Of a stretch of 64,000 bases of DNA, positions 3,479 to 20,595 are shown one piece after another. Below the pieces are notes generated by a model. That model was not told the DNA's origin. It did not search any database and saw nothing but the letters and a program-made list of their open reading frames with translations. The position numbers were made by a program, and so were the translations under genes. Each line of letters starts with the position of its first letter. Positions within the stretch are counted from its first letter, which is position 1. The DNA comes from a bacterium (GTDB lineage Bacteria; Patescibacteriota; Saccharimonadia; UBA4664). The DNA lies in assembly GCA_016699105.1 (NCBI GenBank), contig CP064960.1:8727-72726 (forward strand), given 5' to 3'.

Positions 3479-3580
3479 GCTTTTCGCTCACCTGCGAGGT
3501 CCCATACTTTGTATGTAATCTCTTGCCTCGAAAAGCTCAAATGCAAGCATTTGGCTTTTCGCTCACCTGCGAGGTCCCAT
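3479..3580 (+). repeat. 27-bp direct repeat (gcttttcgctcacctgcgaggtcccat) at 3479-3505 and 3554-3580; second copy is tRNA-Glu leader plus first 8 nt of the tRNA
   Basis: Exact duplicate read in sequence; 48-nt spacer. Confidence 0.8.
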
Positions 3581-3647
3581 CGTCTAACGGTTAGGACAAC
3601 GGATTTTCATTCCGTCAACCGGGGTTCGACTCCCCGTGGGACTACCA
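3573..3647 (+). tRNA. tRNA-Glu (anticodon TTC)
   Basis: Cloverleaf. Acceptor ggtccca/tgggact, D arm tcgtctaacggttaggac, anticodon stem acgga/tccgt with loop ttTTCat, T arm cgggg-ttcgact-ccccg, discriminator a, encoded CCA. Confidence 0.85.
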
Positions 3648-3724
3648 TTTGATCCTGATTCAAATTTGCTAACGCAAAGATGCCATTCACTCCTGGAAAC
3701 AGGGTGTTTTTGGTGTTCCACACT

Positions 3725-5303
3725 TTATTTCGTCAACGGTCGGCAATTGCTCGAAAATAAGGCTGAAAAGTTGGGCCTTTTGACCGGGTCTATCTGTTGG
3801 AGTATCACTTCATCCAGGTGTTCCACGAAATATTTAACCCTCCCCATTACCCGGCCAAATTCGCTGGGTTTTTCGGCTTCTTTCTTGGCCTTTTCGTCGG
3901 TCAATGCGGTGATTTGTTGTTCAATTCTCACAAGGTCTTCCTCCATAAATTTAAGTGCGGTTGGTGAATCCAGGATGCGAATTTTGGCGACGGTCGAGGC
4001 CGCGTCGGCTTTGAGCTGCGTGATGCGATCTTCGATGCCCTGAAGCTCTTGGAGCTGGCTTTGGTTACGCAGATGCCACTCGGCCGAGACCGCCGCCATA
4101 ACGGCGCCGAGGTGGTCAGTAGAGACCGTAAGATTGCGGGTGAAGGCCGCGATAGTGTCCTCAAGCTCTTGCTTGGGAATACGGTAGTAGTGACCGTGAT
4201 GACTGCAATGATAGGCCGGATATTGTTTGCCGGATTTGCCGCGCGACGAGCTAGCAGTGAGTGGATTCTTGCACTGCGGACAGAGCACGAACTTCTTAAA
4301 CGGAAATTCTGATGAGCGCGTACCTTTGTTGATGAGGTGCTCGGGCGGGCGCTTGGCGTGAACGGCGATTTCGCCGCTGGGGCTTTCGATGATAACGCGC
4401 TTGCCCCGGTTGGCGCGGTTGAATAGGTCGATGGAAACGAGGCCGTTAAACACACAACGAATCGGTTTGTTGTCGGTCCACTTTTCGGAGTTGATGCCGG
4501 CGTAAATCGGGTTGCGTAGGAGCTTGTGCATGGCCTTAACGGTGAGCTGTTTGCCGCCGCTGTTGGCGATTACCTTGGAACGGTCGTCTTCATCGCGGAC
4601 GACGAACCCTAGTACGGAAGCCCATGCCATTGAGTCTCTCAACAATCTCATCATCGTGGAGATTGCCTTTGGCATTGAGTTCGAACATCTGGATAACGAA
4701 TTTTGACTCAACCGGGTGGGGTTTGAGAATGCAGCGTTTGCCCTGCTTGGTTTCAACCTTTTCGCTCACATAACCAAAGGGCGGGCGACGCATCCAATAG
4801 CCCATTTGGGTGTAGCGAATTTCGGCGCCAATAATGCGACTCATTATGTCGCGGAGTTCGTCTTTGGCCCGCTCGGCTTCGAGGATTTCCGACTTCTTGC
4901 TCGGCGAGTATTTGCTCCACTTGTATTCAAAGCCCAGGTGGTCGAGTGTGTTTACCTCTTCCCCACTGATGACACCGTAAATATCCACGAGTTTTACTTT
5001 GCAGTGATCGAGCTGGGCCGTCAGCTCACCGTAGGCATGCGAGCCGCCGCGCGTGAAACGGTCGATGGACTTGATGATAAATAGCTGGATGTCGTTCTTG
5101 GGGTTTTTGCAGTAATCAATGGCGGGCTGAACCGGCTGCTGATCCTTTGATGCAGATTCTAGGAATACAAAGAATTGCTTGATGGAAATGCCCCGCGCGG
5201 CGGCGTAGCGTTCAATCTGCTCTTTTTGAGCTTCGGGAGAATCACCGTCCCGGCCCTGCTTTTCGGTCGAAACGCGAATGGCGGCAACGGCGTTCTTGCT
5301 CAT
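3725..5303 (-). CDS. Large serine recombinase (resolvase catalytic domain + recombinase domain + zinc ribbon / coiled coil), frameshifted around 4590-4756
   Basis: N-part AVAAIRVSTEKQ resolvase motif with catalytic Ser (ORF 4590..5477, likely start ATG 5303). C-part with CPQCKNPL...HCSHHGH zinc ribbon and coiled coil in ORF 3725..4756. Confidence 0.7.
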
Positions 5304-5517
5304 TGCTTCGCCCGTTCTTCGGTGATGATGTCGAGGATGATATTTGCTAGCAAGCTCACCCGCTCCTCGGCGGATAAGTTCAAGGCTGCCGATGGTTTCT
5401 CTTTGTTCGTTGCACCCTTCGTTCGCGCCACCCTCATGCCCTCGATTACATACCCAACCCAAAAGAAGCCTCAGCAAATATCTGCGAAGCCTAACACTCG
5501 GCTAAACGAACGAGCTG

Positions 5518-5724
5518 TTATTCCTTGGCTTTGGTCGGATTACCGGGCCGCGTGCGGCTCGCTAAATCCTTCTCGATAAGGACTTTCAGCTCAGGGTCGG
5601 TACCGGCCAGAAGTTGCAGCACAAACTCGGTAAGGCTCAAACCTTTACCATAGGCGACGGCCTTGGCGCGGTTGAGAACTTCGGTGCTGGCATTGATTTG
5701 GAATCGTGGTCGAACTGATGACAT
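5518..5724 (-). CDS. Small ribbon-helix-helix (CopG/Arc-like) DNA-binding protein
   Basis: 68 aa with RHH-like pattern; positioned next to the recombinase. Confidence 0.35.
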   Translation of the reverse strand: MSSVRPRFQINASTEVLNRAKAVAYGKGLSLTEFVLQLLAGTDPELKVLIEKDLASRTRPGNPTKAKE

Positions 5725-5909
5725 GCGGTTATTGTACTACGAGTACTACAATGCGGCGCTTTTTCGTGGTTTAGCCGAATTGTTAAGGCTCGTGTCTATC
5801 TGTATTTAATGTACTACTAATACTACATTAATGCAACACTAGCCTATGGATTGGAGTTTGGTATAGATACGTTTTTCGTGGTATCCCAGCATTCCGTAAG
5901 GATTTCTTT

Positions 5910-6242
5910 TTAGAAGGCATACTTATTCACGTCCACACAATTTGGTTCCTGCTGAAGTGCCATTGCAAACTGCCACTGCCCGTTTACCTTTGCGTAATAA
6001 TAACCGGCCCCGGTTTGGCAGCCCTGGCCGACCGCAGCGAATTGGTCGCGAATAACTTTTGAGATACTGAAAGAAGCGTCTGCCCCGGTAGCCGCGCATC
6101 CGGCATATACTTTGTCGTATTCACCCTTAATATAGGTCTGGAAGTCGGCGGGCGCAGATGAAAGACCCAAGATATGCTCGTACTTGTCCTCAGTCTGAGC
6201 CGCCGACAGCGTGAAACCGCCCCGCATCGTCAGTGCGCCCAC
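5910..6242 (-). CDS. Hypothetical protein, possibly C-terminal continuation of 6272..7177
   Basis: 110-aa ORF 30 nt downstream of the previous gene, same strand. Confidence 0.25.
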   Translation of the reverse strand: MGALTMRGGFTLSAAQTEDKYEHILGLSSAPADFQTYIKGEYDKVYAGCAATGADASFSISKVIRDQFAAVGQGCQTGAGYYYAKVNGQWQFAMALQQEPNCVDVNKYAF

Positions 6243-6271
6243 GGGCGTTCCGATTTGACCATATTTTGACT

Positions 6272-7177
6272 TTACAGCACCGTCTTTGAGTCAACGAAAT
6301 CAATCTCGAATTCGTGCTGGTATATAAGCGTCTGGCTGTCAAACTGAGCAACATATTCATCTGAGCTGAATGTTGGTACCGGAATTGTACTCGGCGCAAC
6401 ATTCTGGCCAATCTTGTCCCCAGGATATGAGAGGATATTCGCCTGGTTTGATGCCTGGTTGATGAAATAGAATGTGTTGCTCGACTGGCTGAAAGAGACG
6501 TAGCCAGATGATTGTACCAAGCCGGGTGCGGAAAACTCGGATAATGTTTTGACGTTACTGCCGTCGGCGTTCATTATCATCGGGTGTTCTGAAACGCCAT
6601 TGTTTTGGCCGGGTGTGTTTTGCGTGTACGCCCAATAAACAACACGCCCATCCGCGAGCTCGGCCGGGTGTTGGCTTTCGTTAGTTTTGGTGAGCTGAGC
6701 GAGAGTATCTGTTGCTAGTGTATAGCGGAAGATTTGTCGGTCGGGTGATTGGTACACCGGCTGAGGCATAATTATCGTCAAGAGAACACTCTTACCATCA
6801 TGAGACCAGGCGTTGCTCCCATCAGGCCATGAGGGGCCGTTTGCTGTAGCCCCGGTAGGCAGCTTAATCTCTTTTGTAACCTTAAGGTATTTATTCAATA
6901 TCCACAGCGAATTTTGCGTGTTGTCCTTACTCGCTACGGCAAGGAACTGGCTGCCGTCTGGGCTCGGAATCATTGTTTGGATTACTTTGCCATCGGTTGT
7001 TGGCAAGTCATATCGAACTCGGCTTCCAGCCTGATTGATACAGACGAGCTTTGAGAGCCGTACAAAGCAGTAATTAGGCGGGAACTGTTTACTGGCTTTT
7101 GACGCCAGTTGGGAACTCACATCAGATTGTTGAGGGCGCTGCTGAAGGTAGGTGGCGTAGCCGGCAACCGCGACCAT
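6272..7177 (-). CDS. Membrane-anchored beta-propeller protein (TolB/PD40-like repeats)
   Basis: N-terminal hydrophobic anchor; SPDGSQ..., WSHDGKS..., ADGRVVYW repeats reminiscent of PD40 blades. Confidence 0.35.
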   Translation of the reverse strand: MVAVAGYATYLQQRPQQSDVSSQLASKASKQFPPNYCFVRLSKLVCINQAGSRVRYDLPTTDGKVIQTMIPSPDGSQFLAVASKDNTQNSLWILNKYLKVTKEIKLPTGATANGPSWPDGSNAWSHDGKSVLLTIIMPQPVYQSPDRQIFRYTLATDTLAQLTKTNESQHPAELADGRVVYWAYTQNTPGQNNGVSEHPMIMNADGSNVKTLSEFSAPGLVQSSGYVSFSQSSNTFYFINQASNQANILSYPGDKIGQNVAPSTIPVPTFSSDEYVAQFDSQTLIYQHEFEIDFVDSKTVL

Positions 7178-7371
7178 AACAAGCGCGAGAATCGATGTTA
7201 GTACTAGAGTACGCCGCCTCGATCTATTTGGCTTAGGTGTTCATCTGACGCAATATGGCTAGTACTGCCGGTTAATTTATCGGCTTCGACAGTCTGTGAT
7301 GGTTTGTGTTCTTGTTTCATTTTGTAAGATTGTTGGTTTAATCTTAAGCGGATTTATGTTGATTGCAAAGC

Positions 7372-8336
7372 TTATTCGGCCCAACTCGTGACGTCGAAAT
7401 ACACATCATAATTACGGCCAGTTTTTGGATCACTAAATTCTTGGTAGTCATAGATGCGCGCGCCATGTGCCTCACGCGAGTCTAGGCCCGGCACGAGCCG
7501 ATTTTGCGACATTTCACTGATGCGGCTTATCATAAATTCCTTTTCCTGCTCGTCGTGCGTATGAATAGCACTTCTAACGTTGTTATGGGTAGTTAATAGC
7601 TCTTTCAGGCCCTCCTCAAGTAGACTGGCGATTTTGGCTTCGATATTTACTGCGATGGTCGAATGGCTGTGGGCTGCCACATGATTATTCCCGAAAGTCG
7701 CCTTTACCCGCTTTGAAACTCCAAAGTACCAGAGCCAGGCCAACCCCAAACAGTTGTGCGCCCGCCCTGGTCGTAACCAGAGCCTGTAAAGTTACTACCC
7801 AACGCCTGTTGTCCGAGTGAGTAATCTGTAACTCCAGCAATTGCCATCAATGCTAGATAGACCATGATGAACTGTGGTGTGCGCGGGTGTCGCTTATGAA
7901 TCATAACGATAGCGACAATTGTTAAAACCGCTTCAATGAACGAGGAGACCACATCGTAATTCCATAACCAAGTGATCCCGGCTGTATCGTAGGTATCGTA
8001 TTGAGTTAGCCTCGTAAATAAAACAAAAACGAGAATGGCGGCAGTGATATATAGACCTAGCACAAAGTAGGCTAACCAACCCTCTATGCCATTAAGCGAA
8101 GTTTTGTCGCCGCGCTTCTTATCGGTGAAAAATCGTAGTATTCCGATTGGTAACCAAATAATTCCAACTACACCGGCAATAAAAACAATGGTATTGCCAA
8201 TGGTCTGGCCCGCACCGCCCGTAGCCCCCCTGACGCAGTTGCGACGGCATTAATTATGGCAAAGCCAATAATTGCGCCAAGTAACAGGAGCAGTGGGAGC
8301 ACGATATGATCGCTACGTCGCCGAATGATTACTGGC
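7372..8336 (-). CDS. Integral membrane protein, split by about 2 frameshifts
   Basis: Three consecutive minus-strand pieces (8336-8226, 8063-7704, 7749-7372) read as one hydrophobic protein. One break at a C6 homopolymer (about 8222-8227). Confidence 0.4.
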
Positions 8337-8356
8337 ATATATTCCTGAGGGTTTCT

Positions 8357-8857
8357 TTAAGCTAAATATAGCTTACTTGTGGGGAAAGTAGCGATAGGCA
8401 GTCGGTTTTTGAATGAGCGCCGGGTCCCAACCCTTTTCTTTGGCGAGCTGTCTATCTCCTCGAATTGCTCAAGATGAAACTTCAGCGCGGCTTCTCGATA
8501 AAAATCTATTCTTGGTTTGAAGTATTTATACAACCTCTGGGCACGCTCCATGTGCTGAGTCGCGCCGTCATCCCAAACATAATATAAATCTTCAGCAGCT
8601 TCGTTTGTGAGTGGGTATCCAAATTCGTCCTTCTGATGCCCGTCATGGGTTATCGGTCCCCAATCAGGCATTTCAGGAACGACTGGAGCCGGACGTTTCA
8701 AAGTAGTAATGACGCCGACTTCAACAAATGGAATATCAGTTTCGGTCTCATACGGCACAAGGTCGAAGCAGCGATACTCGCCCTTCATGTCCCATTCATC
8801 GACGCCGATAGCGACGAGGCTGCGCTGAGAGAGTAGATAATCTGATTGGATTAGCAT
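8357..8857 (-). CDS. Hypothetical protein
   Basis: 166-aa ORF, no motif recognised. Confidence 0.3.
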   Translation of the reverse strand: MLIQSDYLLSQRSLVAIGVDEWDMKGEYRCFDLVPYETETDIPFVEVGVITTLKRPAPVVPEMPDWGPITHDGHQKDEFGYPLTNEAAEDLYYVWDDGATQHMERAQRLYKYFKPRIDFYREAALKFHLEQFEEIDSSPKKRVGTRRSFKNRLPIATFPTSKLYLA

Positions 8858-9033
8858 CGAGATTCATCCCGTTATTGTTTAGCGCCGTCACGCTGTTTTG
8901 ATATTGCTGTCGGGAGATTGATAATCGGCTGGAGTTCGAACGGTCGGTGTGGTCCAAATCGGCAAACTGAATTTTGCGGAGCTTTGTCATCACACCCTCT
9001 TCCCCCCTATCACGCCGTCGAGGAAGATAAACG

Positions 9034-9477
9034 CTAGGCCCATGTATCGGCTCTGCTCCTCGGCCTTGTACCCTTCATAAAGACGACCAGATCGAGATAG
9101 CCATCCTCAACGGGTCTTGAGCTGAAATACACATCCGATGCCGCCATTTCGAGGCCTTCATACTGTGCTGTCTCAATTTCAATAGCCGGCTTAAACGCGG
9201 TTATTTTCCAGCCCGGTATTTTTGGGGCAACGGCAACAATGGCGTGCACCCGTGGCATATCTCTTCTGACGCCGTCGCACGAAATGAATAGCTCGCGCTT
9301 GTTGTCCTCAAATGGGCCAATCAAGAAGCTCAGAAGTGGGTCGGTCTTTCCGAGTTGTTTTGCTAGTTGGCTAACAAGCTTATCTTGATTGGTTTCGAGT
9401 CGAAGATATTCCTTGAATGCTCGCTGAACCATTTCCAGAAATCTGCGTAGGATAATTTTTTTCGAGAATATGCCCAT
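9034..9477 (-). CDS. Hypothetical protein
   Basis: 147-aa ORF, no motif recognised. Confidence 0.3.
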   Translation of the reverse strand: MGIFSKKIILRRFLEMVQRAFKEYLRLETNQDKLVSQLAKQLGKTDPLLSFLIGPFEDNKRELFISCDGVRRDMPRVHAIVAVAPKIPGWKITAFKPAIEIETAQYEGLEMAASDVYFSSRPVEDGYLDLVVFMKGTRPRSRADTWA

Positions 9478-9776
9478 TTGATATCAGTATACGGTATCCG
9501 GTACGAAGTAGATGAACGAATAATAAGTTATTCGCCGCTAATAAACTTAATTGATTATTTTATATCTGTTGAATGTATTTTTGTTTCCTCTTTTACTATA
9601 TAAATATAGAGAAGAAATACTATACCTTGTGACCCCTATGAACTACCCCCTACTACACTTTCTAACTCCTAAACTAACTCCACCTCTATGCCTGAACCAC
9701 ATTACCGAAAACATTAAATGAAGACCAGCTAGAAGTACTCAAACGCTTACGTGATTTTCGATTTGGAACCAGTGAT

Positions 9777-10507
9777 TTGATTGCTCAGTTATTTGGTAAG
9801 TCGAGTGGCGTATTTGTTTTTAAGCGATTGAAGATTTTGCGAGAACGCGGATTGATCGGACAGCGGTTTGATAGTAGCTATCGCATCAAGGGCAAACCTG
9901 CGGCCTACTACCTCTTACCAGCTGGGGCGCGGGCGCTCCAGGATCACTACGACGCTACCGGCCTCGACGTCAAAGTAAACGTAAAGAGCATCTACAAGGA
10001 TGGGTCGGTTTCAGAAACATTTATCGAGCATTGCCTGGATATCTTTGCCGTATTCAATTTGCTGAAATCCCGGCACGGCAAGCGGGTGAAGTTCTTTCAA
10101 AAGCGAAACTCGCGTACTATGACTATCTCCCCGACCCGCTACCCGACGCGTATCTGAGGTTTAAGGTCGAAGAAGACGAAAAACAATTCTTTATTGAGGT
10201 CTTGCATGACGCCCAGTTGTTCTTTGCGGCTGTGCGCCGGATTAAGCACCTCTTGTCCTACGAGGAGGGTGGGGATTGGTCGTCCACCAATACAGCAATT
10301 CCGTCGGTTTTGCTCATCTGTGATAGCGCCAAGTTGCAGCGGCAAATTCACAAGAAGACTTCGCGCATGATTGGCGAGGCGGATGAGATGTATTTTTATA
10401 CCACCACGATGGACGAGTTACGGCAGTTGAAGCGTGGCAAGAAGGATGTGATTTGGCGGGACGTGACCGATCCGGAGGACGCGATGGCGTTGAGTGATTT
10501 GGAATAA
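9777..10507 (+). CDS. Replication-relaxation family-like wHTH protein (plasmid-type), frameshift near 10031-10157
   Basis: N-terminus ...EVLKRLRDFRFGTSDLIAQLFG resembles the replication-relaxation wHTH. Two overlapping frames (9777..10157 and 10031..10507); AT-rich upstream region 9480-9780. Confidence 0.35.
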
Positions 10508-10979
10508 GGGGCTCCGCTCGGGCGCGACTAACTTGCTGCGCTATCCCACCTGCTAGTAATTTGGTCGTAGATCCTTTCGGCTTCACCATCTTTGTCGTCA
10601 CTGACATGTACAAGATACCGAGCAGCCCATAAGCATCTGGGTATTTTGCCACTCGCCTCATGGCAGATATCGCCTCTGAAACAGAAAGGTCCTCACCCTT
10701 AATGAGTCGAGTGGATACCTCCGAGGCTAATTGCTTGGTCGGGTGGTTGAGTTTATCCAGACATACCGTTAGAAGTTCAATTCGCGCACTTTCGCTAACT
10801 TGCTTCTGGACATTCGTTGGCAGATAACAGAGTTCGTACATTATCGCGAAAACAGAATTATTAGAAAACGCCGCCGCTTTTGCAATTAATTCGTGTGCTC
10901 GGGTCTCATCGTTGTACGGGAAGTTTGCGTCGATTTCATCTAGAAATTCGAGCTCCTTGGTTGAGATATCGGCGCTCAT
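10314..10979 (-). CDS. Hypothetical protein (C-terminal about 60 aa is probably read-through)
   Basis: 221-aa ORF; low-complexity tail overlaps the 3' end of the convergent plus-strand gene. Confidence 0.25.
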   Translation of the reverse strand: MSADISTKELEFLDEIDANFPYNDETRAHELIAKAAAFSNNSVFAIMYELCYLPTNVQKQVSESARIELLTVCLDKLNHPTKQLASEVSTRLIKGEDLSVSEAISAMRRVAKYPDAYGLLGILYMSVTTKMVKPKGSTTKLLAGGIAQQVSRARAEPLIPNHSTPSRPPDRSRPAKSHPSCHASTAVTRPSWWYKNTSHPPRQSCAKSSCEFAAATWRYHR

Positions 10980-11219
10980 GACTCGGTTGTACCATCGACA
11001 TTACCGCTTATCTCAAAGGTAAATCCTCGTCCAGCATCGGCATGATCTTGAGTGACAAACTTTCTCGCCGCAACGTAGTCATCGTGCAGATCGGCTGCAT
11101 TCGGCTCAAAATTGATCGAATCAATCGAGAGCAGCTTATTTACGATATTCACGCCCCAAAGGGTCAGTCCTTTGATTCGGCCCAATCCAGTACCTCAACC
11201 GCAGTTTTGGGGTCAAATA

Positions 11220-11799
11220 TCAATGCCCCGTGAGAGATTTCTCCGAGCGCTCGTGTAAAGAATTCCTCCGGATTGGAGCGTCCTCATCATCCGGGGATAC
11301 ATAAAGGTCAATATCAATTGTCGATCCAAGACGGGAAATTCGTTTGACTTCGTCCGCTTCAAACCAAATGCCGGGCGACCAATCACGGCACCAATAGTAG
11401 TAGCCTACCTGGGTCGGATATTTAGCGGACAACTTAGCGATTTCAGCCTCGTGTGGTTCGAGGATCGATAGAAGGTTCTGGAGATGCACTTCAGGTCTCT
11501 CGGTTTCGGGAAGAGCCGATTCAAGCAACCAGAAGTTTTCTTTGATTTTGTATTTTGGGCGTCGGACGGGATCGGGCACATCGTTTTCTTCCGACCTTGG
11601 TCGGGGTTATGCCAATGATTTTAGTAATTTCGTCTGGGTCGACGTCAAACTCGTACACGCCAAAACTGAGGCGCGTTTCGTCTTTGGTGTTAATACCGGC
11701 TCGACGGTGGCTTGAATCGTTTGAGGGTTTTGTCATTGTGGGAATATTAGCATGATTAACCTTTATTCTGTTGTTAAGTTGCCGCACGCGGCGATTCAT
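11220..11799 (-). CDS. DUF4279 domain protein, frameshifted around 11521-11579
   Basis: LSFGVYEFDVDPDEITKIIGITPTKVGRK...YYYWCRDWSPGIWFEADEVKRISRLGSTIDIDLYV matches the DUF4279 signature (D.PDEIT...PT, C-terminal IDIDLY). Confidence 0.5.
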
Positions 11800-11888
11800 A
11801 CTTTCCTAAATCATCAAAAATAAACGGCTATGGATGATTGCGCCGTAATTAACACCACGAGCGGCACCAGGGGGAGTGATGACCCACT

Positions 11889-12515
11889 TTAACGATACCA
11901 CCCGGCTCTTTCGTTATCTTCAGCGGAGTAGAATATGCTTTCAACACTCTCATTATTCATCCTTGCAGTGATCATTGCCTTAATATCGTCATCGGTCAAA
12001 ACGATGATCATCCAATGGGGCGGATATAGATGCCAATGCCGTATAGCGTTGATAGCCTGGCTGCTTGGGAGTTGGCGTGTCAGGATTACCCTGAAAAGCC
12101 CATGCTCGGGTATCTCGTAGTCTTTAGCCTGGAGAACCTCAGAGTTGCCTATCGGTTTGGCGTCACTATAGTTTTTACATTCAAACACGATTGTATGCGT
12201 AGTGTATTTAGATTGAGACTGGCCCAATAATTACTTGTCGGGTTTGTTCTAGGCCTGTTTTTGACAAGAATATCCATACGTTGATGCCTATCCCAAGTGG
12301 TAGCTTGCTGCTCTAGATTGAACGCCTCAAAGCATTCGTCTAAACAGTACTTTAGAATTTCGGCACATATATCTTCGTATTGCCTCCACCCCGCAAAGCC
12401 CTTTTGGCAACCGTCGAGTTTACTAATTAACTCTGTCCCCCTTGAGGTGATGAGTTGGGACTTTTTAGCCTCAGGCGAAAAGGGATCAGATTGGCCTAGC
12501 TGTGAATCTTTACAA
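11889..12515 (-). CDS. Mrr-cat-like restriction endonuclease domain protein, frameshift near 12230; no start codon identified
   Basis: ...QRMDILVKNRP and TIVFECKNY resemble the Mrr catalytic core (D...(Q/E)CK.Y). Reading frame continues upstream of the annotated ORF in a second frame. Confidence 0.35.
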
Positions 12516-12743
12516 CTGAAATTGGCTCAGATTTAGGCTTCACTTGCGTAAGCCTCCATCATCGCGAGCGCCTCATCGAGTGAGCCCTGCCTAGCTGCTT
12601 CAAGTGCATTCACTTTTCTCAGGCTCTCAAGACGTGGCTCAAAACCAGTTGGCGCCTTCGACTTTTCTGCCAGATCGCTTATACCAAGCTTCAAGTTTAT
12701 CTAGGGCCAGGAAGTTTTTGCTTTTGCCAATCGCTCAAAGTAC

Positions 12744-13082
12744 TCATAGGCCAGGGACCAGATGTACGATGAATAGTTTAGATACTCGCCCCTGATCTTT
12801 TCTCAATAAATCTAGCGACACATCTAAAAGTTTGATGAATTCTTGAATATAGCGTTCATTGAGTCGTGTTAATGGTCGACCGAACTCCTTGTCGTGCAGT
12901 TCGTGCTCCAGAGGACCGACCTCATGCATCCCCATTTCCTCAACATGTGGAGCGGCACGTTCTTTTATCTGCTCAAAGCGCCAAATAGCGGCGTCCCTAT
13001 CGCTGAACAGCACAATTAATACTTCGTTCGCTGCGACGGCTAGCGGAGAGTATTTTGGGTCGCCGTCGTGCTGCCGGAACAA
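12744..13082 (-). CDS. Hypothetical protein
   Basis: 112-aa ORF. Confidence 0.3.
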   Translation of the reverse strand: MFRQHDGDPKYSPLAVAANEVLIVLFSDRDAAIWRFEQIKERAAPHVEEMGMHEVGPLEHELHDKEFGRPLTRLNERYIQEFIKLLDVSLDLLRKDQGRVSKLFIVHLVPGL

Positions 13083-13098
13083 TTTACGAAAATAACGT

Positions 13099-13476
13099 TT
13101 ATATTGTGTATCGCTGCGTTATCAGCTTAGACATCGCCCGTAAAGATGACTCTCGCTCATACACGCTGAATTTAATGTCTTCGACAAATGACTTCAGGAC
13201 TGGTATCGCAGTAGTTAAGATAGTGCCGGCCTTCAGGCATTCCTCGATCATATGGACATACGAATTCGGCATGTAGTATCTGGTATCATGGCGCTTATCC
13301 AGGTACCGTTTATTCAGCTCCACTATGTCCGACAACTCGATCTTGCCAAGCAAATCAAATAATAGCTTGCGATCGTCGTCATAGGCGAAGGGGATAAAAT
13401 TGATTAGATTTTGTTCATATTTTGTGCGGACAGTCTCCGCACCAACCAGCTCAACCGCACTCGCAGAGCGTCGCAA
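13099..13476 (-). CDS. Hypothetical protein
   Basis: 125-aa ORF. Confidence 0.3.
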   Translation of the reverse strand: MRRSASAVELVGAETVRTKYEQNLINFIPFAYDDDRKLLFDLLGKIELSDIVELNKRYLDKRHDTRYYMPNSYVHMIEECLKAGTILTTAIPVLKSFVEDIKFSVYERESSLRAMSKLITQRYTI

Positions 13477-13584
13477 TAATAGTGAGCATATTGGGTGATT
13501 GTGTAGTTGGTAGTAGAGCTTGACTCGTCACGGCTATTAATTCGACCTTGATTTCCTTAGGGTCCATCCTATCTAGCACCACCT

Positions 13585-14074
13585 CTACGGCAAGATGCTT
13601 GAGTCTCTCAACGTCCCTCTCGGTGATTTTGCCCGCCAGAGTATCCTTATCATGGATATATGTTCGAAATACTGTTGGAATATACTGATCTTTTCGGGCT
13701 CAAGGGCAATTCTAAAATTGTCATACAGATCATTTGCTCTTTGGCTATTTCTTTGCATGAGCCTGCAATGCGGCAGAGTTATCACTGATTATCCTGCGCT
13801 TTATTGCGTCATCTCGTATTGATTCTGCATCCTCCTGTACCAGTAAACTTATTAAGTTCTTAGCACTCGCCTCATCTGTTCGAGACTTATACCTTTCGTA
13901 TATCTCCAGATAATTATTGAGTGAAATTGTCTTGGATAATAACTTGGATAATGAGTATATATTCTCTTTGTCTTCGAGAGCTTCATATACTTCTTGCTGC
14001 ATACGTTGTTTCGTTTGAAAGAACATATTCAACAAGCTTATCGGTGAAATATGACCGCTCCGCATAGTATCCAT
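13585..14074 (-). CDS. Hypothetical protein (two overlapping frames, probably one gene)
   Basis: ORFs 13745..14074 and 13585..13785 overlap on the same strand. Confidence 0.25.
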
Positions 14075-14213
14075 GACTCTCTCCGTAGGCTCTCAGAATA
14101 AACGCTTTTACGGGCTCCAGTAGTCGTTTAGGATTTTGAGACTTTAATACATTTAGGATTTTGTCGTCCTGATGGCGCTCTCTGTCATTAAAGATGGATT
14201 CCCATCGAGAAAT

Positions 14214-15485
14214 TTATGAACATAGGCATCTTTTTGACCCCAAAATGGAGAAGAAGTTGCGGAGACCTGTCTCTGTTGTGATCTCATAGAAGCCATATCT
14301 CGCATATATTTCGCACCCCATGAGTAGTCCATCGGCCAAGTATTGAATGGTCTTTTTTGAATTAGGGGCAACTTCATAGCAGAAAATTAGGAATGCTTCG
14401 TGTACTAGTTTGTCGGGATGTTTGCTAGCAGGGGTGAGCCTATCAATATCCTTGCTCCTGTTGAACTTCCTAAGAGCACGCAAGGAACGACGCTGAAGCA
14501 CGCCGTTGTCCGATGAGTCGTTTGCGAACTGAATTAATAATTCGTGCCAGTAGTCATCCGGAGTGTCCAGCAACGAAGGGTTTACGGAAAGTATTTCATC
14601 TAAGATGCCGACGGCATTACCCATTTCAACGATGCGCTCCGTTTCGGTACCGCTGCCCTTGAGCAAGTCCTTATTCAATACGGAGATTTCGTTACTAGTC
14701 GCGAACCGAGAAAGGATATGTTCGGCTCCGTCCGGCAGCCAAATCTGCTTATCTTTGTAGAGTTTATATAGGAAAATGAAAAATTTATGCTTTTCATTTT
14801 CGTCTAAGATATCTTCCAGCCCCGCTAAGGCGATTGAATTAAGAAGATCTTCAACGACGACAGAGGGATTTCTCCGCAAGAGGCGCGCGAACCAACCACA
14901 GAGCCCAACATGCTGCGGGAATTGCAGTAGCAAACCGAGTACTTCATACCAATTCGGTGCAATTGCAATTTTCTTGCCATTTCGAGCAAAAATCGTCTCT
15001 AACAATGTTGGTGGACTGGCAACCTCAGCGATGTATAGGGCGGAGTAAAAAGAGTGAACCGAGGGATGGTAAAAAGTTACCAATTCTGATTCAAGAGACA
15101 ATATCCTTAACTCAATTAGATGCTCAATATCACCATGATCGAGAAAGCGTTCTGTTTCGGACAGAGAAAGGCTCACTACTTGCATGAGCTCCATCGCGAA
15201 TGCGAAGCGGCTCAATACGGTGCTAACGGCTTTATTGCCTACTAGCTGCTCATCGAGGTAAATAAAGAATCCTGCGCGACTAAACTTGACGATATTCCGA
15301 CTACTGACATAATCGCCGACCAGAGAAAGAAAATATCTATCTGATAATAAGCTGTGGAATAGGCTCGCTCTCCAAAATTGCCTGACGATTTCTTCGGGCA
15401 AGTTGGAGTTCTCGCCGGGTAGCCGGCCCCTTAGATAAATGGCCTGGTCTTGAGAGGACACTTCATTGTTATTGAAACTACTCAT
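14214..15485 (-). CDS. Hypothetical 423-aa alpha-helical protein, third gene of PLD-nuclease operon
   Basis: Large ORF with start overlapping the upstream 72-aa gene (ATGA-type coupling); no known motif recognised. Confidence 0.4.
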   Translation of the reverse strand: MSSFNNNEVSSQDQAIYLRGRLPGENSNLPEEIVRQFWRASLFHSLLSDRYFLSLVGDYVSSRNIVKFSRAGFFIYLDEQLVGNKAVSTVLSRFAFAMELMQVVSLSLSETERFLDHGDIEHLIELRILSLESELVTFYHPSVHSFYSALYIAEVASPPTLLETIFARNGKKIAIAPNWYEVLGLLLQFPQHVGLCGWFARLLRRNPSVVVEDLLNSIALAGLEDILDENEKHKFFIFLYKLYKDKQIWLPDGAEHILSRFATSNEISVLNKDLLKGSGTETERIVEMGNAVGILDEILSVNPSLLDTPDDYWHELLIQFANDSSDNGVLQRRSLRALRKFNRSKDIDRLTPASKHPDKLVHEAFLIFCYEVAPNSKKTIQYLADGLLMGCEIYARYGFYEITTETGLRNFFSILGSKRCLCS

Positions 15486-15700
15486 ATCTCCATTCCTCCG
15501 CGTTTGCCTGAGATGGCCATGTAAAGTTCATCCAGTATTTCAGGATTTGTATGAGCAATCCTTTTGTAACTCGCCTTCAAATATTCAAGCATCTCAACCG
15601 CAAACTCCCGGTTGGCATTCTCGGGGTGGAAGATGCGCAGGTAGTTTACCGTGGCCTCAACGTCTTTTTCGGTGATTTGGTAGTCGCTCATATCTTGCAT
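15482..15700 (-). CDS. Hypothetical 72-aa protein, middle gene of PLD-nuclease operon
   Basis: Small ORF 8 nt downstream of the PLD gene, overlapping the next gene. Confidence 0.35.
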   Translation of the reverse strand: MQDMSDYQITEKDVEATVNYLRIFHPENANREFAVEMLEYLKASYKRIAHTNPEILDELYMAISGKRGGMEI

Positions 15701-15707
15701 GATTGTA

Positions 15708-16205
15708 TCACCAAGTCCATTTCTTCAGACCGGCAAATTGGATCATCTGTCCGCACAGTTCTTCGGACTGGGTGCGGCGCATGACTTCGCGGCTGTTATT
15801 TTGGCTCAGGATGTTCAGACTCCCCTCCCACAAGATTTCGCCGTCGATGGCGGCCAGCTTGCGGTGTCGCAGATCGTCGCATGTATTCACCTTCACGCCT
15901 GCGGCCCGGAGCTGCTTGAGCGCCACCCAGGCTTGGATGCGCAGGTACTCGTCGTGGTGGTTGGGGTTGCGGGTATTGATACGCACCTTCACGCCGTGGC
16001 GGGTGAGCTTTGCCAGTACCGGCAGCAGTTGGTTTGTGCGCCGGGTGGTGAGATATGGGCTTTCGATGATGACTTCGCGTTTGGCGCGTTTGAGATCATT
16101 GATGAACGCGCCGTAAAACCGGCGCTCATCGTAGAGCTTTGACGTGAGGATGGCGGCCGGGTTGGGTTGACGGCGGAAGATGCTAAACATGCTCCACCTC
16201 CCCAT
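15708..16205 (-). CDS. Phospholipase D-family (HKD) endonuclease, Nuc/BfiI-like single-HKD protein
   Basis: HRKLAAIDGEILWEGSLNILSQNNS contains H-x-K-x4-D plus the GS.N tail of the PLD nuclease motif; 165 aa. Confidence 0.6.
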   Translation of the reverse strand: MGRWSMFSIFRRQPNPAAILTSKLYDERRFYGAFINDLKRAKREVIIESPYLTTRRTNQLLPVLAKLTRHGVKVRINTRNPNHHDEYLRIQAWVALKQLRAAGVKVNTCDDLRHRKLAAIDGEILWEGSLNILSQNNSREVMRRTQSEELCGQMIQFAGLKKWTW

Positions 16206-16285
16206 CGCCGACGCCGAGCTCTTCGAGCCGAGTGCTGAGTTGTACCAAACTAGGCCACAATGTGTTCCACATGCGTCCCGTTTGG

Positions 16286-16334
16286 CCTACCAAAGAAAAA
16301 CCCTCACGATATGTGGGGGTTTTTCTTTGGTAGG
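16286..16334. terminator. 18-bp perfect inverted repeat hairpin (cctaccaaagaaaaaccc / gggtttttctttggtagg)
   Basis: Read directly; lies between the island boundary and core genes. Confidence 0.45.
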
Positions 16335-16485
16335 TGTTCACGCGGGGAGGAGAACTGTATGGTTCGGTGGATGAGGAGCGCAGGGAACGGACAAGTTCAC
16401 TTGGACGATTTCCGAGCACCACAAGGAGGTGGCGTTAGCCACACTCCGTATGGGACTACCAGGAGTTATTGAAAATGATATGTTG

Positions 16486-18022: not shown

Positions 18023-18460
18023 CTAGGCAGTTTTCGGAGCGACAGGATTAATGCCCAGCTTTGTTTGAATCATATCAAGCACTTCACGCGGGGTGTAATC
18101 GGCTTTGACGAGATAATCGGCGCCATAACTTTGGGCAGTTTTGCGGTCTTCGGGATTGGATGAATTGGTGAGCACCATGACCGGCATGGTCGAGAAATCA
18201 AAGTTGTCACCAGCAAGGGCGCTTAAGAGTTCGAGACCAGTAAGTTCGGGCATGTTGATATCAAGCAACAACAAACTTGGGGCATTTAGTTTAACAGCTT
18301 CGTAGGCATCCCGGCCATTGGCTTTGACGATGACACGTAAACCAGCGCTTTCGAGTTTGATTTGGTACATTCTCGAAATAAACGGATCGTCTTCGGCTAC
18401 CAAGACTACCTTTCGGTCATCGACTGGTGCGGCGGGTACGGGATTTGCTTGTATGGCCAT
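18023..18460 (-). CDS. Single-domain response regulator (CheY-like receiver)
   Basis: VLVAEDDPF...LLLLDINMPELTGLELL...YLVKADYTPREV; likely start ATG 18460 with aggagg RBS. Confidence 0.75.
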   Translation of the reverse strand: MAIQANPVPAAPVDDRKVVLVAEDDPFISRMYQIKLESAGLRVIVKANGRDAYEAVKLNAPSLLLLDINMPELTGLELLSALAGDNFDFSTMPVMVLTNSSNPEDRKTAQSYGADYLVKADYTPREVLDMIQTKLGINPVAPKTA

Positions 18461-20595
18461 GATTTCCTCCTTGCTTGACGGGTTTTGACGCTTTGGCTGG
18501 CAGGTCAAATCCAAATATCGAACCCTTACCTTCGGTGCTGCTAAATATGAGGGTTCCCCCTTGATCTTCTACTACTCGCTTGGCTAAGTAAAGCCCCAAG
18601 CCTGTTCCGTCTGGACGCACCCCTTGCGCATTTTCGGCGCGGAAGAATTTGCCAAACAACTTGCCCTGAGCCTTACGAGGCACCCCGATGCCCGTATCGT
18701 GCACTTCGAAATGAACACTCTTGGGCGTGCGACTCAGTAATATCCTCACCTCACCGCTGGGCGTATAATAGATAGCATTGTCAATAAAGTTCATGATGAC
18801 CTGTCGGGTTTTATTATCATCGAGGTCGACCAAAGGCCAGGCTTCAGCTGGGGGATTAAATATAAGGGCTATCTTTTTGGCTTCGGCATGCGAGCGCAAT
18901 TGCCGCACTTCGTCGGAGACCATTTTGACGAAGTCGGTGGGTGTAGGTTGGATAATGAAGCGACCAGCCGATAGTCTGGAAACATTGAGAAGGTCAGAGA
19001 TGAGGTTGACCATTCGTTGGCTAGCATCAAAACCATAGCCGACAAATTGATTTTGCATGGCTGTGAGCTTACCGGCATCGCCTTCGGAGAGCATCGACAA
19101 GTAGCCTTTAATAGTTGTAAGTGGTGTGCGCAGTTGATGTGAGGCCATGGAGATAAATTCGTCCTTAGCCTGATCGAGTTCTTTCAGATGACGGTTGGCA
19201 ATGCGCAAACGGTTGGTAGCATGTTCAACTCGCCCCTGAAGGGTAACGTTAAATTCTTTGATTTCCGCAAATGCCTTGGCGTTTTGTAATGCTACTGCTA
19301 GTTGTCGGCTGATAATTTCGAGTACTTTGATATCTTGATCCGAATAGACGTCGCCCGAAAGCTTATCGCCGATGAGTAGATAACCAATAAAATCCTCGCT
19401 CGTCCGCAACATAGTACTAATGCGTAGGTCATGATGCTCAAGAAGCTCTTTGCGCTTGCCGCCTTCGAGCTCGTCAGCGATGATCATCGATTGGTTGAGT
19501 TGGATGAGTTCCGAGCGCTACCATGAGGCGCTTAGGTAATACGCCATAATGCTCACAGCGATAGACCCGGTCATGGTTGAATACTACTATCTGAGCATAG
19601 GATATGTGCATCGATTGACATAAGGTGGGTGAGTGAATGTTTGAGTAGCCGATCGAGGTCGATCTCACTAACGAGGATTTTGGAAGGCGGCATTGAGCAC
19701 CTCTTGGGAATCGTAGTGGTCGCGGTAAAAGATATTGTTGGTGAGGCGCTCGAAAACTCGTCGTAATGGCTGAAATGCAAACAGAGATTACCGCCATGAA
19801 ACTATATGCCATAACTGGCGTCGGACGCCGAGGTATTTGGCCCAAAAACATATCGCGATGTTGCGATGAATAGCGCCCCAAAGCTCAATGCAGGCGTACC
19901 AAGGAGCATCACATACATGGCAGTACGGGCGATAACTGCTCGTATATCAAATAACCGGGTACGAATAATGGCATAGGCAATTGAAATCAAGTAGACAAGT
20001 GTAAAGATGGGGCCTAAGTAAACAAATTTATAATTGTTAGCCATGACCGGCAAAATCAAATTACAAATAATGCCCATGCCACAGCAACCGACATGCCCAA
20101 AGAAACTAATTGAATTTGAAGTTTTTGAATGCCACCAGTTTGATAGGATTTGAAAAGTGACAGTAATCCCACCCCGAATAGACCCATGTGATACCAAAGA
20201 CTTTGACGCCAAATATGGTTACAATTTCGCGGTTAGGTGTCACTGACGTAGCGCACACACCTGGGATGGCACTGACTACTGCCGATAAGCCACCGACTAA
20301 TAGTATGAGTCTATCTGGGGAGTATCCGCACTCGTGCAAATGAAGCGTTAAACAATGCGAAAAATGTAGCCGTCAACATGGCGCCCGAATAGCTAAACAA
20401 CGCGGTTGCAAACGTGTATTCGATTGGGACTACCCTGAATAACCCGTTCGTGAATGTCCACGTAGCTACACCAACTGTTAACCCGAAGTAATAACGGAAG
20501 GTTACGCTCTTGGTGTTCCGCAAAAATATCGCAAGTCCCAAGATGAGATTAGAAGCCGCAGCCACAAATAACAATACGCTCGGCAGATCGATCAT
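18417..20595 (-). CDS. Sensor histidine kinase (N-terminal polytopic membrane domain, GAF, HisKA, HATPase_c), split by several frameshifts
   Basis: HisKA H-box SHQLRTPLT, HATPase G-boxes (GTGLGL). GAF remnant and 7TM-like fragments in ORFs 19474..19881, 19802..20212, 20311..20595. Confidence 0.6.

Follow-up and report, generated by a model that had tools for sequence, protein, structure and literature searches.

In a 64,000-nucleotide stretch of DNA from a bacterium of the class Saccharimonadia (contig CP064960.1, positions 8,727 to 72,726; hereafter the window, whose own coordinates are used throughout), three closely spaced open reading frames (ORFs) on the minus strand, at 15708-16205, 15482-15700 and 14214-15485, had been read in a first-pass annotation as one compact operon and a candidate defence or abortive-infection module. 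The results of the present study indicate that the locus is very probably a composite, in which a conserved pair of genes, for a nuclease of the phospholipase D (PLD) family and a small acidic partner, lies at one end of an integrated island and is followed by the broken front of an unrelated, decayed two-gene cassette. What the pair does is a separate question. We propose tentatively that it is a partner-regulated nuclease serving the island in conflict, and we consider this function and the composite anatomy, taken jointly, to be a reasonably likely account of the locus.

The reading frames and the decayed solenoid cassette

The first ORF encodes a PLD protein with a single HKD motif, as had been recognized (Pfam PLDc_2, E = 1.5e-13, 51.2 bits against a cut-off of 27). 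The longest form of the ORF, up to position 16205, has 165 amino acids, but the start is probably M6, because the homologs of approximately 160 amino acids align from the second methionine; the gene is then 15708-16190 on the minus strand, encodes 160 amino acids and is intact. Its stop codon is separated by a 7-nucleotide gap from the start of the second ORF (15482-15700, minus strand), which encodes 72 amino acids, or 69 from M4 as in the NCBI call. The TGA of the second ORF and the ATG of the third overlap as ATGA, in agreement with the first-pass annotation. The hidden Markov model check run against Pfam, NCBIfam, PADLOC and PHROG gave nothing above threshold for the 72- and 423-residue products, neither of which had been assigned a recognizable domain, and the DUF4279 gene and the nuclease fragment mentioned in the neighbourhood were confirmed by Pfam and PADLOC scans. 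The earlier description is accurate except that it treated the 423-residue ORF as a whole gene.

With the 423-residue protein as query, a word-indexed homology search returned no sequence other than the query; 128 relatives, nearly all of approximately 970-1,000 amino acids, were recovered when 1.8 billion representatives were searched exhaustively with HMMER. Against one of these, P0122 (985 amino acids), the ORF aligns with E = 2e-107 and 45% identity (query residues 7-419, target residues 5-415), and its 423 residues span end to end the N-terminal 415 or so residues (43%) of the approximately 985-residue relatives. The homology runs in frame past the TAA codon of the window (ESIFNDRERHQDDKILNVLK vs ESIFNDRDRHEDDRILKTIK); the homolog has lysine at this codon and the similarity is strong on both sides, which identifies an AAA to TAA nonsense codon at 14216-14214. 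In a tblastn search, residues 5-974 of P0122 were traced on the window from 15467 to 12569, distributed over five or more frame segments and interrupted by several stops, and the later pieces of the gene include the minus-strand ORFs 13745-14074, 13099-13476 and 12744-13082. The whole decayed gene would thus occupy 12542-15485 on the minus strand, with the nonsense codon and at least five frameshifts. By this homology, the 423-residue ORF (14214-15485, minus strand) is shown to be the front of a dead, approximately 985-residue HEAT-solenoid gene, which is cargo unrelated to the pair. Because it is a pseudogene fragment, the supposed operon of three complete genes consists of two intact genes and a fragment.

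If the lesions were assembly errors, the genes of the cassette could instead be intact and share a transcript with the PLD and small genes, in one larger functional operon. The DNA comes from a metagenome-assembled genome (MAG), as part of a 1.3-Mb contig, and two of the three frameshifts in the recombinase gene of the same island (see below) lie at A4-A5/T4 runs; these two shifts may be homopolymer errors. In the cassette, however, the stop arose by substitution, and homology is clear to either side of it. Because most of the frame changes in the solenoid gene are not at homopolymer runs, and the window has intact long ORFs in other places, we read its lesions as real decay, and long-read homopolymer errors were rejected as their source in the cassette. 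Moreover, even if intact, the cassette is independent of PLD in every other genome. A larger operon hidden by assembly errors is thus very improbable.

The gene order in other genomes suggests which partner the solenoid gene had. Intact genes of approximately 985 residues were found in four independent contigs (L004, L092, L093 and L094), and in all four the next gene overlaps the end of the solenoid gene by 8-14 nucleotides and encodes 213-250 amino acids. The four products are homologous and have in common a D…FECKN motif, which is of the PD-(D/E)xK nuclease type. The decayed counterpart in the window is the sequence previously called an Mrr-like fragment (11892-12490, minus strand); read from 12490 to 11892, it is 56-64% identical to the 217-residue gene of L004, with one frameshift and the N-terminus lost. 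Judged from this arrangement, the true partner of the solenoid gene is the PD-(D/E)xK nuclease and not the PLD pair.

These results bear directly on the proposal that the PLD, 72-residue and 423-residue proteins form one three-component defence or abortive-infection system. The close packing on one strand, the ATGA overlap and the presence of PLD domains in the DISARM, Mokosh and Dpd systems speak for it. However, the third ORF is a truncated pseudogene whose family has its own conserved nuclease partner, and the co-occurrence check of the triad was negative: the solenoid family was found beside PLD in none of approximately 90 loci, and a PLD or small gene in none of the four loci with an intact solenoid gene. 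A three-component system is therefore even less probable than the larger operon. The part of the defence proposal that stands concerns the PLD/72-residue pair, which is conserved (44 of 81 copies), of nuclease type, and located in an island that carries defence cargo in other genomes; the 423-residue ORF does not belong to it.

The AlphaFold prediction of P0122 (predicted local distance difference test [pLDDT] score of 90) is an all-helical HEAT/ARM alpha-solenoid, to which importins, CAND1 and SF3B1 are alike only at the level of the repeat. The form of approximately 985 residues is solenoid only, without a nucleoside triphosphatase (NTPase) domain, and had no PADLOC match. P0164 and similar relatives of 1,300-1,430 amino acids have an N-terminal extension with a weak NACHT match, which hints that the solenoid may be a STAND-type sensor module; the longer relatives thus resemble the bacterial STAND/NLR-like sensors, whereas the shorter form differs from them in having no NTPase domain. 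The partner of approximately 215 residues has a domain-level match to PADLOC PDC-M36A (4.5e-13), confined to the C-terminal nuclease domain. The cassette is found near serine recombinases, and its copy in the window is dead. The solenoid and PD-(D/E)xK genes are a separate candidate two-gene system, with intact copies elsewhere.

The PLD nuclease family and its small partner

Membership of the PLD (HKD) superfamily is indicated by the motif HxK(x)4D(x)6G(G/S)xN together with the PLDc_2 match above the Pfam gathering threshold. The form H109-x-K-x4-D-x6-G-S-x-N (H109-R-K-L-A-A-I-D-(6)-G-S-L-N in the window) is invariant across 27 family members, and the C-terminus, …RW-x-W, is also conserved. 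At E≤1e-3 the family has 3,326 protein clusters, mostly of approximately 160 amino acids and 55-80% identical. The hosts are mostly Saccharibacteria-like; in named genomes they are MAGs of Saccharibacteria or Saccharimonadales. A search of the PDB with the single PLD sequence found nothing, but the family profile matched Zucchini/MitoPLD (4ggj, 8.8e-6), NucT (6ehi, 2.5e-3) and PLD3 (approximately 7e-3), all of nuclease type. The protein is strongly basic (isoelectric point [pI] 10.3, net charge +13) with a charged N-terminus; no transmembrane segment or signal peptide was found (maximum 19-residue Kyte-Doolittle hydropathy, 0.61), nor a recognizable secretion domain in the Pfam scan. PADLOC gave domain-level matches to MkoC (1.9e-12) and DrmC (3e-3), and also to MkoB and DpdK, and with the NCBIfam models for cardiolipin synthase, DpdK and NucT the protein scored far under the cut-offs. 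From these features we infer a cytoplasmic, strongly basic enzyme of the Nuc/NucT/Zucchini type.

The ratio of nonsynonymous to synonymous substitution rates (dN/dS) of the PLD gene is 0.10-0.15 against its closest relatives, L012 and L013 (81% protein identity). No PLD relatives were found in the viral contigs of IMG/VR, or by tblastn in 72,556 PLSDB plasmids and 50,697 INPHARED phages, and an origin from a phage or classical plasmid was therefore dropped. Full-text literature searches found no description of the PLD family, of its small partner or of this type of element in Saccharibacteria or Patescibacteria. One Saccharimonadales MAG (L009) has two diverged PLD copies 1.4 kb apart (8162-8590 and 10001-10444), and a convergent XRE gene comes immediately after one of the two.

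For the analysis of the pair, 91 loci were fetched, in which 81 PLD copies had enough downstream sequence. In 44 of these 81 copies, a homolog of the 72-residue protein begins 5-50 nucleotides after the PLD gene. The 34 homologs of the small protein are 54-89% identical and conserve the motif YLRIFHPENAN. They are acidic, with a family median pI of 4.7 against 10.3 for the PLD protein, and the AlphaFold prediction is a three-helix bundle (pLDDT 85) that had no significant neighbour in the PDB or BFVD. The dN/dS of the small gene is approximately 0.24, with dS near saturation. A convergent gene of the XRE type, encoding a helix-turn-helix protein, comes next in 36 of 69 PLD loci; in a table of 60 loci, it was present in 26 of the 33 that have the small gene and in 5 of the 27 that do not. 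The recurrence of this gene order shows that the PLD and 69-72-residue genes form a conserved pair. The co-occurrence (44 of 81) is not the obligate one of a toxin with its antidote, as in type II toxin-antitoxin (TA) or nuclease-immunity systems.

In the remaining PLD loci, the next gene encodes an unrelated membrane protein of approximately 165 amino acids, or is the XRE gene directly, or is one of various unrelated genes. The alternative partner of approximately 165 residues, directly after PLD, has predicted membrane helices and the motif YADYLKxHxxARPxAY (L016 491-991, L029 1005-1499, L040 4258-4734, L087 4806-5312 and L091 493-1002). The possibility that it carries the small-protein domain was rejected, as hhalign gave a probability below 1% and the two are not detectably related. 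In L037 (10505-11377), and likewise in L038, the small-protein domain (YLKIHDPENADRDYA) is located at the C-terminus of a 290-residue Peptidase_S51-like protein directly after PLD; these matches were accordingly not taken as plain small proteins.

The island at the tRNA-Glu gene

A tRNA-Glu(UUC) gene, identified with ARAGORN and Rfam, lies at 3573-3647 on the plus strand and is the putative integration target. Its last 11 nucleotides (3637-3647, TGGGACTACCA) constitute the left attachment (att) core and recur once in the window, at 16451-16461 on the plus strand, as a displaced tRNA-Glu 3' end between the PspC gene and the recombinase tail that precedes PLD; approximately 7e-5 chance matches are expected in the 281-nucleotide spacer. 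A large serine recombinase gene (3616-5477, minus strand), 11 kb from PLD and on the same strand, overlaps the tRNA gene, and the C-terminus of its product, …LFPGVNGIFALANLNQDQMVVPRGVEPRL (…NLNQDQMVVPRGVEPRL), is encoded by the antisense of the tRNA 3' end. The gene has three apparent frameshifts and matches Pfam Resolvase and Zn_ribbon_recom. In comparison with the intact 578-residue recombinase of L044 it shows 71%/44% identity over four frame segments. The L044 protein has all three domains of a large serine recombinase (Resolvase, Recombinase and Zn ribbon) and matches a PHROG integrase at 6.4e-37.

At the other end, a relic of the C-terminal tail of a serine recombinase (16183-16422, minus strand; …QRKTP…MWNTLWPSLVQLSTRLEELG…, ending in …MWNTLWPSLVQLSTRLEELGVGDGEVEHV) is located directly upstream of PLD, with an overlap between the stop of the relic and the start codon of PLD (ATGTTTAG). 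The relic corresponds to the C-terminus of recombinase ORFs in L003 (194 amino acids, internally deleted) and L037 (453 amino acids), both of which overlap the PLD start by 8 nucleotides, and the motif WNTLYPSLxxLxxKLEELG was found upstream of PLD in 34 of 80 regions tested. The loci L043 and L044 have the same plan as the window: a 9-bp copy of the tRNA-Glu 3' end stands 87 nucleotides upstream of PLD, and at the far end an intact, 73%-identical recombinase ORF overlaps tRNA-Glu (positions of these features in L044: 4542 and 12272-14042). Outside these elements there are pyruvate kinase and VIT1 genes beyond one border and a gene for a PKD-domain protein beyond the tRNA. L037 has at 14187-14481 a C-terminal recombinase remnant that runs into tRNA-Glu (…NFPLVTPRGIEP).

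The window thus has a tRNA gene at one border, a displaced repeat of it at the other, and a recombinase on board, as a tRNA-integrated island should. We conclude from these features that positions 3648-16450 or so (approximately 12.8 kb) represent a putative integrated element with its att core within the reading frame of the recombinase; the borders so defined show the PLD pair as the apparent first genes inside one end of the island. Integration would leave the body of the recombinase gene at one island end and its last 35 or so codons at the other, overlapping the PLD start codon. In the excised circle, body and tail would be joined, and the recombinase, PLD and small genes would form, in this order, one translationally coupled operon.

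At positions 16290-16450, between the right att core and the recombinase tail and reaching into the tail ORF, we observed a degenerate second copy of the recombinase segment before the core (QRKTPTYREGFSLV), together with a short post-core reading (VVPYGVWLTPPP…). This duplication suggests a scar of an older tandem integration, a rearrangement or a deletion.

In having the att core inside the ORF of the integrase or recombinase, a tRNA target, and an integration that alters the gene, the element is similar to the archaeal integrases of the SSV type (PMC7253208). However, the enzyme here is a serine and not a tyrosine recombinase, only the last 35 or so codons are swapped, and the integrated L044 keeps a full ORF of 578 amino acids. 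According to the Islander paper of 2014, no serine recombinase was then known to have a tRNA gene as its target (PMC4383910).

The slot after the PLD pair holds variable cargo, including recognizable defence genes in other genomes. For example, a SIR2-HerA pair and Fic follow PLD, small and XRE genes directly in L006 (10935-14912), SMODS and SLATT genes resembling a cyclic oligonucleotide-based antiphage signalling system (CBASS) are found in L003 (7312-12408), TIR in a 17-kb contig of the Joint Genome Institute (JGI), TIR and Schlafen/AlbA in L013, and a weak AbiU2-like HEPN gene in L012. In L003 and the JGI contig the cargo continues with a cluster of type IV secretion system (T4SS) genes (TrbC, TrbL, PrgI, TraC and VirB4-like); T4SS genes lie within 10 kb in 10 PLD loci, and none were found in the window. 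Parts of diversity-generating retroelements (DGRs; bAvd and reverse transcriptase) occur in L005, L007, L001 and L044. The apparently intact element L044 carries at 5891-9701 a DGR (reverse transcriptase of 269 amino acids, bAvd of 177 amino acids and a possible target of 670 amino acids) and Fic.

In the window, the dead solenoid and PD-(D/E)xK genes are followed by DUF4279 fragments and a split Replic_Relax-like gene. The DUF4279 gene (11220-11799, minus strand; Pfam 1.3e-9, profile positions 28-116 only) is split in two ORFs, the overlapping one being 11521-11799. The Replic_Relax-like gene (9777-10507, plus strand; weak Pfam match, 2.8e-4) consists of two overlapping ORFs and has a homologous region in the L043/L044 and L003 elements. 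Both split genes are consistent with a general decay of the island cargo. Elsewhere in the window, upstream of a histidine-kinase ORF (18417-19487) in the minus-strand region 18417-20595, three short ORFs of the same strand with membrane-like sequence (19474-19881, 19802-20212 and 20311-20595) may be pieces of one sensor domain or small genes in their own right.

Possible functions of the pair

Our tentative proposal is that the pair is a partner-regulated nuclease that serves the island in conflict, by defence or exclusion or by addiction. The PLD protein would act as a dimer with a single HKD active site and cleave nucleic acid in the manner of its single-HKD relatives; its small acidic partner, the three-helix protein, would bind the PLD protein and restrain or regulate it, with a putative convergent XRE repressor also present in about half of the other loci; and the pair would benefit the island by excluding foreign DNA, by addiction, or by both. 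The two genes are intact under purifying selection, and the adjacent recombinase and cargo genes have nonsense and frameshift lesions. A role in conflict would explain the survival of the pair while the recombinase and cargo around it decay.

Nuc of pKM101, NucT of Helicobacter pylori and Zucchini/MitoPLD, the nearest solved relatives by profile, are likewise proteins of approximately 160-200 amino acids with one HKD motif that need to dimerize, and Nuc too is carried on a mobile element with a T4SS. The present family differs from these in its weak, core-only similarity, in having no signal peptide or membrane anchor, in its own small partner, and in its coupling to a recombinase gene; with the NCBIfam NucT model, the protein scored 17.7 bits against a cut-off of 211.

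Among immune systems, the PLD proteins DrmC of DISARM, MkoB and MkoC of Mokosh, DpdK of Dpd, and AgaP offer a comparison, with the domain-level PADLOC matches to MkoC and DrmC and the location in a defence-rich variable region as points of likeness. None of the defining partners (DrmA and DrmB with a methylase, MkoA or a helicase fusion, the Dpd cluster, a prokaryotic Argonaute [pAgo]) was detected in the window or among the related loci that were examined. In the case of DISARM, PADLOC and Pfam detected no DrmA (helicase), DrmB (DUF1998), methyltransferase, or DrmD/E among the window neighbours and in related loci; in that of Mokosh, the match is confined to the PLD domain (997-1119 of the 1136 positions in the MkoC model), and no helicase is nearby. 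The PLD protein seems most like the stand-alone or partner-restrained PLD nucleases of immunity, for example AgaP. This nuclease, which is associated with pAgo, is toxic alone and is restrained by its partner (PMC11442185).

The order of a basic nuclease gene and a gene for a small acidic helical protein, often with XRE adjacent and kept in decaying mobile DNA, is reminiscent of the colicin DNase-immunity protein, barnase-barstar and type II TA pairs. However, no similarity of sequence or fold to these pairs is seen, and the partner is missing in 46% of the loci.

Several observations weigh against this proposal. The small gene is absent from 46% of the PLD loci, some of which have the membrane protein of approximately 165 amino acids instead and some XRE only; this rules out the small protein as an obligate antidote. 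XRE is missing from the window, and the scan for sigma-70 sites and terminators, a weak and uninformative test, showed nothing promoter-like ahead of the PLD gene. The borders of the island rest on short repeats (11 and 9 bp), and linkage to tRNA-Glu is seen in only three independent PLD loci; no att-like repeat was found at tRNA-Glu(CUC) of L012 or at the tRNAs of other loci. A defence or abortive-infection role of the pair is plausible by association with defence cargo, and it shares the weakness of all guilt by association.

An alternative possibility, which we consider unlikely, is that the pair serves the life cycle of the element itself. In this reading, the serine recombinase would have the small protein as its recombination directionality factor (RDF), and the PLD protein would process DNA in excision, replication or transfer, like the Nuc-type nucleases that conjugative elements carry, or else remove stalled phosphoseryl recombinase-DNA adducts, comparable to Tdp1, another enzyme of the PLD superfamily. 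Serine integrases with small RDFs are known. In L037 and L003 the recombinase stop and the PLD start overlap, and the window retains a relic of this arrangement; the tail motif before PLD and the T4SS genes of the 10 loci also fit this role. However, purifying selection keeps the PLD and small genes intact even where the recombinase has frameshifts or only its tail is left, 39 of 60 PLD loci have no trace of a recombinase, the small gene tracks PLD and XRE and not the tail, and the window is without T4SS genes. A narrower version, which appears improbable to us, is that the PLD protein is not a generic defence protein but a factor coupled to excision, which might resolve such stalled adducts, or else attack rival elements or the chromosome that the island has left.

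It is slightly less probable still that the two proteins are a secreted toxin and its immunity protein, the Saccharibacteria T4SS delivering the PLD protein to cells of a host or competitor, and the producer being protected by the small acidic protein. Such a function would suit a basic nuclease followed by a small acidic helical protein, the T4SS clusters downstream in 10 loci, and the conserved C-terminus …RW-x-W. However, the protein has no signal peptide or recognizable secretion domain, half of the loci are without the putative immunity gene, and the T4SS linkage is limited to a minority of loci that does not include the window. The least credible explanation is that the protein is a housekeeping enzyme of phospholipid synthesis, such as a cardiolipin or phosphatidylserine synthase, as named in JGI annotations and suggested by a weak NCBIfam cardiolipin synthase match, since that match (26.7 bits) is far under the cut-off of 290, the 160 amino acids of the protein contain only one HKD motif and no membrane segment, its nearest structures are nucleases, and its gene lies inside mobile islands.

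The present locus is a lesson for annotation, in that close packing of genes can join a conserved module to dead cargo, and the locus does not belong in a count of three-gene defence systems. Should the island model prove correct, its recombinase may represent a new class of serine recombinases with a tRNA target and an att core in their own ORF, which would be of interest for recombinase research and for integrase tools. If in addition the excision-coupled function were true, Saccharibacteria would have a family of elements with the att core in the recombinase ORF at a tRNA gene, in which excision rebuilds a recombinase-PLD-small operon. The defence and mobile-element biology of the Saccharibacteria lineage is barely known, and an abundant, unstudied family of single-HKD nucleases is now defined in it, with a new small partner and a fixed place at the edge of mobile islands.

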